A stretch of DNA of 64,000 nucleotides, taken from assembly GCF_058153355.1 (NCBI RefSeq), contig NZ_CM177019.1; one strand, given 5' to 3'. Both the position numbers and the translations under genes were made by a program. The notes under the pieces were generated by a model, which worked only from the letters and a program-made list of their open reading frames with translations, had not been told where the DNA came from and searched no databases. Of the stretch, positions 20,939 to 25,310 are shown piece by piece. Numbering within the stretch: position 1 is the stretch's first letter; each line of letters opens with the position of its first letter.

Positions 20939-20952
20939 TTGTCTGAGAACAG

Positions 20953-20977
20953 AGATACGGCTAATAGCCGTATCTCT
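20953..20977. promoter_or_regulatory. perfect 11-bp inverted repeat (operator candidate 1) abutting the -35 of the toxin-antitoxin promoter
   Basis: GAGATACGGCT-AAT-AGCCGTATCTC, perfect palindrome. Confidence 0.6.
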
Positions 20978-21005
20978 TGACAGAGTGAGTATATGCACAT
21001 AAATT
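20977..21005 (+). promoter_or_regulatory. candidate sigma70 promoter of the antitoxin-toxin operon
   Basis: -35 TTGACA (20977-20982), 17-bp spacer, -10 TAAATT (21000-21005). Confidence 0.5.
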
Positions 21006-21010
21006 AATCA

Positions 21011-21027
21011 TACGGTTGATAGCCGTA
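21011..21027. promoter_or_regulatory. second inverted repeat (operator candidate 2) just downstream of the -10
   Basis: TACGGTTGATAGCCGTA shares the TACGG...AGCCGTA half-sites of operator candidate 1. Confidence 0.55.
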
Positions 21028-21081
21028 TTATGCATGAGATCGACTCCCTACGATTTCATTCAGTTAATCAAAGAGGTCATA

Positions 21082-21393
21082 ATGCCTGGAAAAACAGTCG
21101 CTCTACCCGATATCGATAAAACGCTGAAAAATGCGCGGGTTGAACTCAAAACCAGTCCCGACGCCAAAAACAAACTTCGTGAAGCTGCGCAAGCCGTTGG
21201 GGTAGATTTAAGCGCTTTTATTTTGAGCGCAGCTATGGAACGCGCCGAAAGTGTGCTTGATAACCAACGTCGCCGTGAGCTTTCGAATCAAAGCTGGGAA
21301 CTGATGAACCAACTCATCGCTGAACCTGCTCAACCGACGCTCGCCCTCAAGGCGTTAATGAAAAGGAAAAACAGCGATGGTCGACAAGCATGA
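21082..21393 (+). CDS. DUF1778/ribbon-helix-helix type II antitoxin (TacA/AtaR-like), 103 aa
   Basis: ORF 21016-21393 trimmed to ATG 21082, which follows SD AAAGAGG (21071-21077); small protein with the SAFIL...A..AE.VL pattern typical of DUF1778 antitoxins; 17-nt overlap with downstream GNAT gene. Confidence 0.75.
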   Translation: MPGKTVALPDIDKTLKNARVELKTSPDAKNKLREAAQAVGVDLSAFILSAAMERAESVLDNQRRRELSNQSWELMNQLIAEPAQPTLALKALMKRKNSDGRQA

Positions 21394-21919
21394 AGAGATT
21401 ACTCTGCCCATAGTCCTCTCCTGTAATTATCAGTCTGATATTACTTATCCTGGGCAAAAACAGTTTGATTGCGGTAACCCTGTTATCGATAAATTTGTAC
21501 GCGCATCGCTAAAGAAAAGTGTGCGTAATAGCGACTGTGCTGCTAAAGCACTTATTGACAGACAAAGTGGTGAACTGATTGGCATCTGTACTTTTACGGC
21601 ATATTCGCTGGAAAAACAACGCGTTTCTGGCGTCCTTCAGGGTTCACAACCTTCAGAGATTGGTGTTGTCAGATTAGTCATGTTAGGGGTAGCGCGGAAA
21701 TATCAAAAGCGGGGCTTTGGTCAGGACCTACTATGTGATTTTTTTGAACATGTAAAAATAATTCACCGGGCATTACCAATTAAAGGGGTTTATCTTGATG
21801 CTGACCCTGCCGCCATTAACTTTTATACTCGTCTCGGCTTTGTTCAGCTTTCAGCGAGGCCCAATGTTTTCGGTGCTGTACCGATGTTTTTAGCGATTCA
21901 GCATATTCTCGCGGCTTAG
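21377..21919 (+). CDS. GNAT-family acetyltransferase toxin (TacT/AtaT/KacT-like), 180 aa
   Basis: N-terminal FDCG motif, acetyl-CoA binding RKYQKRGFGQ (Q/R-x-x-G-x-G), C-terminal FYTRLGF with conserved Tyr; translationally coupled to the upstream antitoxin. Confidence 0.8.
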   Translation: MVDKHEEITLPIVLSCNYQSDITYPGQKQFDCGNPVIDKFVRASLKKSVRNSDCAAKALIDRQSGELIGICTFTAYSLEKQRVSGVLQGSQPSEIGVVRLVMLGVARKYQKRGFGQDLLCDFFEHVKIIHRALPIKGVYLDADPAAINFYTRLGFVQLSARPNVFGAVPMFLAIQHILAA

Positions 21920-22909
21920 ATTATTATCGCCTCCGGCCATGGCAAGTTTTGCCTCAGCCGGGGACTGAGCAGCGTTACCACTTTTGTTCAATTGCCCCGC
22001 TTTCATCAGGTCCACATCCTTGCCTTTAATGGTTGCCGTTGCGGCAACGATTGTGGTCCTTATTGCTGCACAAGATTTTCGTTCAAATTCCGGTTTATAA
22101 AGAATAAGCAACGAATTACTGGTAAATGAATCAAGCCGGTAATCTGTAAAGTTAATATCCAGTCGGTTTAAGCCGAAAGGTGCAAAGCCGACCGTTTGAA
22201 TAGTTTCCTTACCTGACGGACTCTTGATGTTGTACGTAACACGAAGATTGGCCACTTCGCCTAATTTATTGGTTTTGGCAAAGAGGCTATCCATACAGGA
22301 AAAACCTTTATCTAAAAAATTATCCCGCATTCCAGAACGGGTAATCGTGATCACAGGTAACGTATCGTCAACCGTTTTTCTGTCAATCATATCTTTTCGA
22401 CAGGCGGCCATAAAGTCTTCCGGACCAGCATAAATGTGAACACCCTTATCAAGATATTCTTTCGCTTTACTACAATCCACCTCGACATACTGACCATTGG
22501 CGTACATCATGCCCAACCTGGACCATGCTAAATTCACACCGCGTTGCGTAGCCTGATTAAATAACGTATACGCTTTGGCGTAATCCACTCGCACCTGTTC
22601 ACCTTCGTAGTAGATATTCCCCAGCGCTAACGGAGCTTCTTCATCACCTTGTTTAGCGGCTAACTCGAACCATTTAATGGCTTCCTGAACGTTGGGTTTG
22701 GTATCGTAGCGGGGCTGATAATATTCCCAGCCTAACAGGCTTTGCGCGTCGACATCCCCCGACTCAGCCATTTTATGCAGTGTCCTTATCACATCGGGGG
22801 CAGGCTTTTCACTGTATATGCTGTCATACAATTCATGCGCTTTCTCGCTTGCCAGTGAACCTTGTGAGGCAATTAATAAAATAGCCAATAAACTCTTTTT
22901 ATTTAACAT
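21890..22909 (-). CDS. secreted Sel1-repeat (TPR-like) protein with ~170-aa C-terminal domain of unknown function
   Basis: 339 aa; signal peptide MLNKKSLLAILLIASQGSLA; Sel1-like repeats (AQSLLGWEYY..., EAIKWFELAAKQGDEEAPLALGNIYYEG, AKAYTLFNQATQRGVNLAWSRLGMMYANG); 3' end overlaps GNAT gene 3' end by 30 bp. Confidence 0.7.
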   Translation of the reverse strand: MLNKKSLLAILLIASQGSLASEKAHELYDSIYSEKPAPDVIRTLHKMAESGDVDAQSLLGWEYYQPRYDTKPNVQEAIKWFELAAKQGDEEAPLALGNIYYEGEQVRVDYAKAYTLFNQATQRGVNLAWSRLGMMYANGQYVEVDCSKAKEYLDKGVHIYAGPEDFMAACRKDMIDRKTVDDTLPVITITRSGMRDNFLDKGFSCMDSLFAKTNKLGEVANLRVTYNIKSPSGKETIQTVGFAPFGLNRLDINFTDYRLDSFTSNSLLILYKPEFERKSCAAIRTTIVAATATIKGKDVDLMKAGQLNKSGNAAQSPAEAKLAMAGGDNNLSRENMLNR

Positions 22910-23325
22910 AAATAACTTTTATGCATCCATCACTATATTTTTCAATATACCTAACCACCAAACATCCACTTCATGAATAAATACACAGCCATAACAACCT
23001 CAGGTAATAAGTAAACATTTAAGCTGAAGCAGAATAACCAGCACCTCCAACACCTCTATTTATTACGATAAAATAACATCATCCTTTAATAAAAAATCAC
23101 ACGCTCATCAACAAATCCGAAAATAATATCATTCGTGGCAGGATAAAATCAGGTGAGCTTTTCATTTGTTATATTTAACACACAAAGTATTAATGGCAAG
23201 AATACGAGAGAAGCGCATGCCTGACGTAAAAATCACGCTCTTATGTAATATTTACTCATTAACACTCTGTTTACCCAACATGCGCTCCGCACTACACTAT
23301 GTGGGCAATTTTTTAAGAGGTGGTA

Positions 23326-24690
23326 ATGAACGATTATAAAATGACGCCAGGTGAGCGGCGCGCGACCTGGGGTTTAGGGACCGTATTTTCATTGCGCATG
23401 CTGGGCATGTTTATGGTACTGCCGGTTCTAACTACGTACGGTATGGCACTGCAAGGTGCCAGTGAAGCATTAATCGGTATTGCCATTGGTATTTATGGCC
23501 TGACTCAGGCCGTTTTTCAGATTCCGTTTGGCCTGCTCTCAGACCGTATTGGTCGCAAACCATTAATTGTCGGCGGGCTGGCGGTGTTTGCTGCCGGTAG
23601 TGTTATCGCTGCGCTTTCCGACTCAATCTGGGGAATTATTCTGGGCCGGGCGTTACAAGGTTCTGGAGCGATTGCCGCTGCCGTTATGGCGCTACTTTCT
23701 GATCTCACGCGCGAACAAAACCGCACCAACGCGATGGCGTTTATCGGCGTGAGTTTTGGTATTACCTTCGCCATTGCGATGGTACTTGGCCCTATCATCA
23801 CTCACAAACTTGGACTGCACGCGCTGTTCTGGATGATCGCTATTCTGGCAACAACCGGCATTGCGTTGACCATTTGGGTGGTGCCCAACAGCAGCACGCA
23901 CGTACTTAATCGTGAGTCCGGGATGGTGAAAGGCAGTTTCAGCAAAGTGCTGGCAGAACCGCGACTGCTGAAACTCAACTTCGGCATTATGTGTCTGCAC
24001 ATGCTGCTGATGTCGACGTTTGTTGCCCTGCCCGGACAGTTGGCTGATGCGGGGTTCCCGGCGGCTGAGCACTGGAAGGTCTATCTGGCGACGATGTTAA
24101 TCGCCTTTGGCTCGGTTGTGCCTTTCATTATCTACGCGGAAGTTAAGCGCAAAATGAAGCAAGTCTTTGTCTTCTGCGTCGGGCTGATCGTGGTTGCGGA
24201 AATTGTGTTGTGGAACGCACAAACGCAGTTCTGGCAACTGGTGGTCGGCGTGCAGCTATTCTTTGTGGCGTTTAATTTGATGGAAGCCCTCCTCCCCTCG
24301 CTTATCAGTAAAGAGTCGCCAGCCGGTTACAAAGGCACGGCGATGGGCGTTTACTCCACCAGCCAGTTTCTTGGTGTGGCCATTGGCGGTTCGCTGGGTG
24401 GCTGGATTGACGGCATGTTTGACGGTCAGGGCGTATTTCTCGCTGGCGCAATGCTGGCCGCAGTGTGGCTGGCAGTCGCCAGCACCATGAAAGAACCGCC
24501 GTATGTCAGCAGTTTGCGCATTGAAATCCCATCGGACATTGCCGCAAACGAGACGTTAAAAGTGCGTTTGCTGGAAACTGCGGGTGTCAAAGAAGTGTTG
24601 ATTGCAGAAGAAGAACATTCGGCTTACGTGAAAATCGACAGCAAAGTGACGAATCGCTTTGAAGTTGAACAGGCAATTCGTCAGGCATAA
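23326..24690 (+). CDS. yajR: MFS transporter YajR
   Basis: ORF 23320-24690; conserved start MNDYKMTPGERRATWGLG; 12-TM MFS with soluble C-terminal domain. Confidence 0.93.
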   Translation: MNDYKMTPGERRATWGLGTVFSLRMLGMFMVLPVLTTYGMALQGASEALIGIAIGIYGLTQAVFQIPFGLLSDRIGRKPLIVGGLAVFAAGSVIAALSDSIWGIILGRALQGSGAIAAAVMALLSDLTREQNRTNAMAFIGVSFGITFAIAMVLGPIITHKLGLHALFWMIAILATTGIALTIWVVPNSSTHVLNRESGMVKGSFSKVLAEPRLLKLNFGIMCLHMLLMSTFVALPGQLADAGFPAAEHWKVYLATMLIAFGSVVPFIIYAEVKRKMKQVFVFCVGLIVVAEIVLWNAQTQFWQLVVGVQLFFVAFNLMEALLPSLISKESPAGYKGTAMGVYSTSQFLGVAIGGSLGGWIDGMFDGQGVFLAGAMLAAVWLAVASTMKEPPYVSSLRIEIPSDIAANETLKVRLLETAGVKEVLIAEEEHSAYVKIDSKVTNRFEVEQAIRQA

Positions 24691-24726
24691 AAAACGAGGC
24701 GAATTGCCTGTTGCGCTACGCTTTTC

Positions 24727-24800
24727 AGGCCTACAAAAGTTCCTGAGTGACAAACCTTTGTAGGCCGAATCAGGCGTTCATGCCGAATCTGACATGAACA
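24727..24800. repeat. REP-like palindromic element (yajR-yajQ intergenic)
   Basis: GGCCTACAAA...TTTGTAGGCC 10-bp inverted repeat followed by GCCGAATCAGGCG / GCCGAATCTGAC REP-like units. Confidence 0.6.
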
Positions 24801-24818
24801 AAGCGCAGGTTGTCGCGA

Positions 24819-25310
24819 TTAATCGCGGAAGTTTTTGAACTGGAACGGCTGACCCAGATCGCCACCACGTACCATCGCCATGACAGCCTGCAAATCATCA
24901 CGAGATTTGCCCGTCACACGGATCTCATCGCCCTGAATTTGCGCCTGCACTTTCAGTTTGCTGTCTTTGATCATCTTGACGATTTTCTTCTGGGTCGCGC
25001 TTTCAATGCCCTGTTTCAGTTTCGCTTCCACAAACCAGGTTTTACCGCTATGAACGATATTTTCCGGTACATCCAGCGAACTGCCTTCAATGCCGCGCTT
25101 CAGCAGCTTGGCACGCAGAATATCCAGCAACTGATTGACCTGGAAGTCGGACTCGCTCAACACTTTGATGGTTTTGCTGGCGTCGTTCAGCTCAAATGAG
25201 GCTTCAACGTTACGGAAGTCAAAACGGGACTCCACTTCGCGGCTCGCGTTATCGACCGCGTTTCGAGCTTCCTGAAGATCAACTTCAGAGACAATATCGA
25301 AAGATGGCAT
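24819..25310 (-). CDS. yajQ: nucleotide-binding protein YajQ (UPF0234)
   Basis: ORF 24819-25478; conserved start [26 protein letters not shown] at ATG 25310 (minus). Confidence 0.9.

Follow-up and report, generated by a model that had tools for sequence, protein, structure and literature searches.

The long AT-rich spacer between a Sel1-repeat gene and yajR is very probably an inherited two-way regulatory region with the scar of a deleted gene

Introduction

What occupies a long, AT-rich and apparently gene-free gap between a Sel1-repeat gene and yajR? The question is raised by the 64-kb window analyzed here (the whole stretch of DNA under study, 64,000 nucleotides, to whose positions all coordinates refer), in which cyoBCDE is followed by a small islet and then by yajR on the plus strand. 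The initial annotation had described about 415 bp of AT-rich sequence without an open reading frame (ORF) above 60 aa, had considered this longer than a divergent promoter needs, and had suggested that it might hold an H-NS-silenced promoter, a small RNA or a very small protein. We consider it highly probable that the spacer is a composite, inherited two-way regulatory region that carries the scar of a selA deletion and hides no gene. The ~85 bp beside yajR would carry the yajR promoter, a short leader and a ribosome-binding site, and the other ~330 bp would be the upstream control and leader region of a onetime selA-selB operon for paralogous secreted Sel1-repeat proteins. A long AT-rich gap is thus explicable without a hidden gene or RNA, which matters little outside annotation.

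Throughout, we use two names coined for this study: selA for the Sel1 gene of 478-499 aa found in relatives, and selB for the Sel1 gene of the window.

The spacer and the islet that contains it

The genes of the islet, the spacer and yajR are arranged as follows.

21082-21393: antitoxin of the DUF1778/TacA type
21377-21919: GNAT toxin, matching PDB 7BYY (ItaT) with E=1e-115
21890..22909, minus strand: selB, encoding a secreted Sel1-repeat protein whose C-terminal domain has no known function
22910..23325, no strand assigned: the whole selB-yajR spacer, 416 bp
23326..24690, plus strand: yajR, encoding an MFS transporter, present as a divergent allele

With the Sel1 gene beginning at 22909 (minus strand) and the ATG of yajR at 23326, 416 bp lie between them, in agreement with the gap first described. 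The G+C content of the spacer is 34.4% against a window average of 50.5%, at the 2nd percentile of 416-bp windows, and the long A/T runs reported earlier are likewise present, with nine runs of at least 8 nt. Further 416-bp windows under 36% G+C lie at ~15500 and at 47500-48500. The longest stop-free run in the spacer is 56 codons, as expected from the earlier statement that no ORF exceeds 60 aa; because 61% of composition-matched shuffles of the spacer also lack a 60-codon open stretch, this carries no signal.

The spacer is the longest among the 7 divergent spacers of the homologous BL21 neighbourhood, and the co-directional cyoA-ampG spacer nearby exceeds it at 461 bp; its length is unremarkable. 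What had seemed longer than a divergent promoter needs has a historical explanation, since the homologous yajR-selA spacer of two-gene relatives is already 393 bp long and a deletion scar of ~43 bp is added to it. K-12, whose cyoE-yajR spacer measures 148 bp, lacks only ~22910-23240; homology to K-12 restarts ~80 bp before yajR, the last ~85 bp of the spacer being a diverged homologue of the K-12 yajR upstream region.

The spacer and islet are found between cyoE and yajR in 1,367 of 5,426 complete E. coli genomes (~25%), always in single copy and at the same site, and BL21(DE3) has the same islet with a 416-bp spacer. Searches with the spacer gave no phage match, and its plasmid matches were to toxin-antitoxin genes only or to mis-filed chromosomes. 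A mobile or repeated element (IS, MITE, REP/ERIC) was rejected on the single location per genome in the 1,367 genomes and on the lack of a phage match.

The itaRT type II toxin-antitoxin locus has been described in E. coli HS and BL21(DE3), with the same locus tags (PMC6125619). The islet of the window resembles it in that its GNAT toxin matches ItaT and a DUF1778/TacA-like antitoxin lies upstream. That system, however, sits at the opposite end of the islet, where it is served by a promoter and operator palindromes of its own (~20951-21028); the 416-bp spacer is not part of it. Just before the antitoxin gene, the palindromes AGAGATACGGCTAATAGCCGTATCTCT (20951-20977) and ATACGGTTGATAGCCGTAT (21010-21028) lie on either side of a promoter-like site, TTGACA-17-TAAATT; as probable ItaR operators they fit the autoregulation reported for this locus (PMC6125619). 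Literature searches on the Sel1-gene locus tags, on yajR/cyoE together with toxin-antitoxin, and on Salmonella STM0437/0438 yielded nothing useful beyond the ItaT papers.

A probable former selA-selB operon and its deletion scar

Comparison with relatives divides the selB side of the spacer into two segments.

22953..23240, minus strand: upstream regulatory and leader sequence inherited from the onetime selA-selB operon, in its type I allele (BLAST match to relatives)
22910..22952, minus strand: selA deletion scar, in which the decayed selA ribosome-binding site, start (ATG GAT GCA TAA, 22930-22919) and initial codons are joined to selB at TATTT(T)AT (co-linear with the selA 5' end)

The relatives have yajR, a spacer of 393-441 bp, selA (478-499 aa), 10-22 bp and selB (308-312 aa), in this order. 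Such two-gene loci occur in Escherichia sp. E4694, E4930 and E4385, in record CP057686 and in the metagenomic locus L030; beyond selB most of them continue with itaRT and then cyoE, L030 having only the antitoxin and E4930 neither. The two-gene operon thus survives beside yajR in cryptic clades of Escherichia and in metagenomic loci related to them. The metagenomic locus L031 has selA and selB with yajR missing, and in Salmonella a 503-aa selA homologue adjoins yajR at the same position. SelA and SelB are paralogues that share 33% identity over mature SelB. No match to selA was found in any of the complete E. coli genomes searched (5,426 of 5,426).

On its minus strand, from 23340 down to 22945, the window has a 396-bp BLAST match of 90.9% identity to the spacer between yajR and selA in Escherichia sp. 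E4694 and E4930 (positions 583-977 of loci L032/L029), and this match stops 13 nt short of the selA ATG. Segment 22953-23240 diverges from E4694 by ~10-11.5%. The single-gene alleles aligned at the junction (window, common E. coli type, BL21, L035, EC7003, E. albertii and L026) follow the sequence upstream of selA co-linearly through the Shine-Dalgarno (SD) sequence, the ATG and ~7 codons, and then pass into the start of selB. In two-gene loci (L032) the 8-mer TATTTTAT stands at selA codons 7-9 and again directly before the selB ATG. A deletion between these copies predicts the junction AAAGTTATTTTATG, and the junction observed in the window is AAAGTTATTT-ATG. Both flanks are therefore co-linear with intact relatives and the endpoints carry microhomology, the two features by which we recognize a deletion scar. 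Spacer homology, junction co-linearity and the TATTTTAT repeats together lead us to assign 22953-23240 to the inherited selA upstream region and 22910-22952 to the scar.

The 1.5-kb selA would thus have been lost in E. coli lineages through a deletion between the two TATTTTAT copies, after which the selA upstream region would adjoin selB with ~43 bp between them, in which what is left of the ribosome-binding site and start of selA is decaying. Like other microhomology deletion scars of bacteria, this one has intact two-gene relatives, an 8-bp repeat at its endpoints and a remnant that decays faster than its surroundings: between pairs of alleles the divergence is 1-13% in the proximal 85 bp, 10-40% in the mid-spacer and 21-56% in the scar, the fastest segment. 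It differs from them in the age of the event, which is old, the scar being only 64-73% like the predicted junction.

The spacers fall into two deep clades: type I, to which the window and every two-gene locus belong (86-87% identity to the window), and type II, with all other single-gene loci (68-70%). Among the alleles compared, the window is the sole one to pair a type I spacer with the single-gene layout. Similarity of the window scar is 64-73% with scars of type II and 68% with the junction predicted for type I, about the same for every alternative, and the combination may reflect either recombination or a second, independent deletion of selA. The E. coli itaRT islet would be the eroded remnant of a larger and older yajR-linked locus (selA and selB, with or without itaRT) that E. 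coli shares with the cryptic Escherichia clades and Salmonella.

The yajR-proximal block

The remaining part of the spacer belongs to yajR and contains several candidate elements.

23241..23325, plus strand: yajR-proximal block (promoter, short leader and SD sequence), the slowest-evolving part of the spacer
23270..23298, plus strand: sigma-70 promoter-like site for yajR, TTTACC (23270-23275)-17-TACACT (23293-23298), from a position weight matrix (PWM) scan and conservation
23315..23328, plus strand: yajR SD sequence AAGAGGTGG and the ATG at 23326
23221..23249, plus strand: second promoter-like site, CTGACG-17-TGTAAT, present in the window and common alleles, not in EC7003
23286..23314, plus strand: weak terminator-like hairpin and T6 run from a consensus scan, with the -10 hexamer in its loop
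23256..23265, plus strand: TCATTAACAC, complementary to the yajR SD/ATG segment GTGGTAATGA (23320-23329)

The block is homologous to the yajR upstream regions of K-12, Citrobacter farmeri and Salmonella, and its 1-13% divergence among Sel1-linked alleles compares with 14-18% at yajR third positions in the same lineages. TTTACC-17-TACACT is the best plus-strand PWM site in the window and EC7003 alleles and the third in the common allele. Both hexamers are identical in all seven aligned sequences (window, common allele, K-12, L027, C. farmeri, L026 and Salmonella), no islet allele departs from them, and the 17 bp between them vary; the site thus shows the 17 +/- 1 bp spacing of sigma-70 promoters and hexamers that are kept while the flanks diverge. 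We infer from these sequence features that it is the yajR promoter; a literature search found no mapped transcription start for yajR.

The hairpin at 23286-23314 has a 6-bp stem with two G-U pairs (-8.3 kcal/mol, z -0.94). It is missing in K-12 and Salmonella, its T-run is interrupted in L026, and it is probably incidental. An intrinsic terminator or attenuator upstream of yajR was rejected, as a stable, conserved, G+C-rich stem followed by a U-run is not found there.

The promoter block exists in two old haplotypes, one Sel1-linked and Salmonella-like, the other carried by islet-free K-12 and by C. farmeri; one version of the yajR promoter region is thereby tied to the presence of the Sel1 genes. 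In common-type strains it is precisely at the start codon of yajR that the sequence becomes identical to K-12. The yajR of the window is 94% identical both to typical E. coli and to E4694. BL21(DE3) (L018), E. coli C and their relatives carry a 9-bp tandem duplication (TCTGTAATA x2) that aligns to ~23244-23252 of the window, just upstream of the promoter block, and this accounts for the 416 bp of the BL21-type spacer as against the 407 bp of the common B1-type allele.

A wider tract of the window is also unusual. From ~22800 to 24950, covering the Sel1 5' end, the spacer and all of yajR, the sequence is a divergent haplotype in which yajR third positions differ by 14-16%; in panE and the cyo genes on its flanks, identity to K-12 is 98-100%. 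The spacer type of the window was found in merely 18 of the 5,426 genomes. By its sequence, the tract looks like a recombination import from another Escherichia lineage.

The selB side

Two further elements lie in the inherited region upstream of the scar.

23063..23100, plus strand: two copies of a GATAAAA...CA motif, 22 bp apart, with copies in three allele lineages
23187..23205, plus strand: degenerate palindrome GTATT-N9-AATAC, perfect as GCATTCAT-N3-ATGAATGC in the common allele

Three blocks are invariant across seven sequences: TTTTATC (23067-23073), CTTATTAC (23004-23011) and TATTTATTCA (22974-22983). The GATAAAA...CA pair is possibly a protein-binding site. The palindrome at 23187-23205 folds with a z-score of -4.8 in the common allele and -1.2 in the window. 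In every allele the Sel1-sense strand has more G than C and more T than A over the proximal 200 bp (23110-22910), a strand skew that fits transcription through this region in the Sel1 direction.

Neither a consensus scan nor an alignment-aware PWM scan of the Sel1-sense strand found a convincing conserved sigma-70 promoter. TTGGTG-18-TATAGT was rejected as the selB promoter: it is found in the window allele only, and the mRNA would be nearly leaderless. A Fur box (23117-23135) and sigma-54, sigma-E and sigma-28 motifs were rejected by eye for mismatches at critical positions. The suggestion that the gap holds a promoter is plausible, given the conserved promoter-like site of yajR and the inherited region upstream of the Sel1 gene.

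In these respects the spacer resembles the divergent promoter regions of enterobacteria, in which genes point outward from an AT-rich spacer, a sigma-70-type promoter lies near one gene and conserved blocks stand amid fast-evolving sequence. It departs from them in that one arm once served a gene now deleted, selB standing today behind a foreign leader and a vestigial ribosome-binding site.

H-NS silencing of the spacer is plausible from its AT content. Xenogeneic silencing by H-NS would suit a sequence of 34% G+C in a 50.5% context, in a variably present islet, that flanks an often pseudogenized gene of unknown function; less typical are the one weak motif match and a locus that by its looks is no recent import but ancestral to Escherichia and Salmonella. 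The spacer has one 2-mismatch match (23065-23074) to the H-NS nucleation motif TCGATAAATT, a motif that is enriched across the 64-kb window (93 matches versus 67 expected) but not in the spacer. The only exact TCGATAAATT match in the window is at 21486-21495, within itaT.

Apparent erosion of selB and the question of decay

Relative to the closest genome, 2020CK-00188, the window has a 1-bp deletion at 21994 that lengthens selB from 311 to 339 aa by exchanging the final 7 residues of its product for 35 others, and the ORF then overlaps the 3' end of itaT. In SWHEFF_69 selB is frameshifted and in MFDS1022581 it has an internal stop, and from these three cases selB appears to be eroding. L026, with a YajR of 89% identity, has ATA as the start codon of selB (~1525), because of which the gene caller picked an upstream start and selB is reported as 348 aa.

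Such erosion bears on a reading in which most of the spacer is functionless, decaying DNA left by the breakdown of the Sel1 locus, with selection confined to the yajR promoter block. The state of selB as a pseudogene in several strains, the prior loss of selA, the fast evolution of the scar and the 30-40% divergence between the two spacer clades would all suit it. We nevertheless consider it very improbable, since invariant blocks of 7-10 bp survive between clades that otherwise differ by 30-40%, and selB is intact in most sampled genomes. Moreover, the 10-11% divergence of the window and E4694 spacers is below the ~17% estimated for yajR third positions, the quantity actually measured for this pair being only the overall yajR identity (94.1%).

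Alternatives with a hidden product

The spacer might instead encode a small regulatory RNA or a structured cis-leader, for example a yajR leader that begins at ~23256, pairs through its 5' end with the SD sequence and ATG, and includes the terminator-like hairpin. Several features would fit: transcription from CTGACG-17-TGTAAT would begin near 23256, 13 pairs are predicted between TCATTAACAC(TCT) and the complementary SD/ATG segment, a hairpin with a T6 run is present at 23286-23314, and the proximal block is very highly conserved across Sel1-linked alleles. The covariance-model check proposed in the initial annotation was run as three Rfam scans at permissive thresholds, but returned no match with E<1 inside the spacer; the best matches in or near it reached 15-17 bits against gathering scores of 40-100 (E 1.9-6.7). 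Folding of the whole spacer gave z-scores of -0.30 on the plus and -0.72 on the minus strand; the best of ~80 local windows reached -2.7, and the yajR leader has a z of -0.77, which is not significant and stands beside the similarly low value of the hairpin. RNAalifold on seven alleles assigned only small covariation terms, -2.15 and -0.18 kcal/mol; double changes in the folded alignment are few and trace back to a single split between lineages, and several of its pairs are broken. E. albertii and L026 have uncompensated changes in the SD region, and the SD/ATG pairing, like the hairpin, is missing in K-12 and Salmonella. TCATTAACAC would be transcribed solely from the upstream promoter-like site, whereas the promoter conserved across genera would initiate downstream of the supposed 5' arm of the leader. 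Without an Rfam match, a significant fold or covariation, the small-RNA suggestion is not upheld, and we think there is scarcely any likelihood that a structured RNA is the function of this DNA.

A hidden peptide has somewhat more to recommend it, although in the window its ORF is broken.

22951..23053, minus strand: broken copy of a small ORF, with its ATG changed to ATT (23035-23033) and one additional A at 23000

Elsewhere this hydrophobic ORF has 27-28 codons and is intact in 9 of 11 alleles, including those of BL21(DE3), E. coli C, E. albertii and the cryptic clades, with GGAGG or GGTGA 5-8 nt before its ATG. The spacer could accordingly specify a product of 27-28 aa, either a regulatory leader peptide or a small hydrophobic protein (BL21: MIMFQAKCVLITWTFMALYLFIKWIFGG); in two-gene loci the stop of the ORF is 22 nt upstream of the selA start, and the product might regulate the Sel1 genes that follow or function as a small membrane protein. 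The frame, the ATG and the position of the stop persist across two deep spacer clades, TAA, TGA and TAG are all used as the stop, and between the clades indels are frequent around the ORF with none inside it. Against this, the copy of the window has lost its start and, by the +1 frameshift, its frame, which leaves pieces of 17 codons (23053..23000) and 13 codons (22992..22951), and EC7003 has a premature stop. No purifying selection on the peptide was seen, pN/pS being 0.7-1.1 and the +1 and +2 frames scoring equal or lower. The hydrophobicity follows from the G+T-rich composition of the strand, L030, L031 and Salmonella have no similar ORF upstream of selA, and an exact look-up of four versions of the peptide found no match in a collection of 15 billion proteins. 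Of the 13 ORFs of at least 10 codons in the spacer of the window, just one, the 13-codon tail of the broken copy, is shared with other alleles, and an ORF overlapping the yajR start was rejected, its conservation being confined to the promoter-block DNA. The very small protein once suggested is thus not supported for the window, where the sole allele-conserved ORF is broken and pN/pS is close to 1. We judge a peptide-coding function of the spacer to be unlikely, and are equally doubtful that the ORF is a genuine unannotated small membrane protein or Sel1-operon leader peptide whose window copy was recently inactivated, though it may have some coding or leader-peptide role in other strains. BL21(DE3) carries both the islet and an intact copy of this candidate ORF.

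Other cargo at the cyoE-yajR site and a second insertion

The islet position holds other genes in some relatives. E. albertii has a gene for a 325-aa secreted protein of unknown function in the position of itaRT (L028, 3548-4525), and in L031 (2001-2978) the gene for that protein is split into two ORFs between selA and selB; from these loci we conclude that cyoE-yajR is a variable site with interchangeable cargo.

The window has a second AT-rich insertion, between yajO and pgpA (32850-34700), with an ORF of 511 aa at 33063..34598 on the plus strand that contains pentapeptide-repeat-like segments. The closest genome is without this insertion, and its yajO and pgpA are 53 bp apart.
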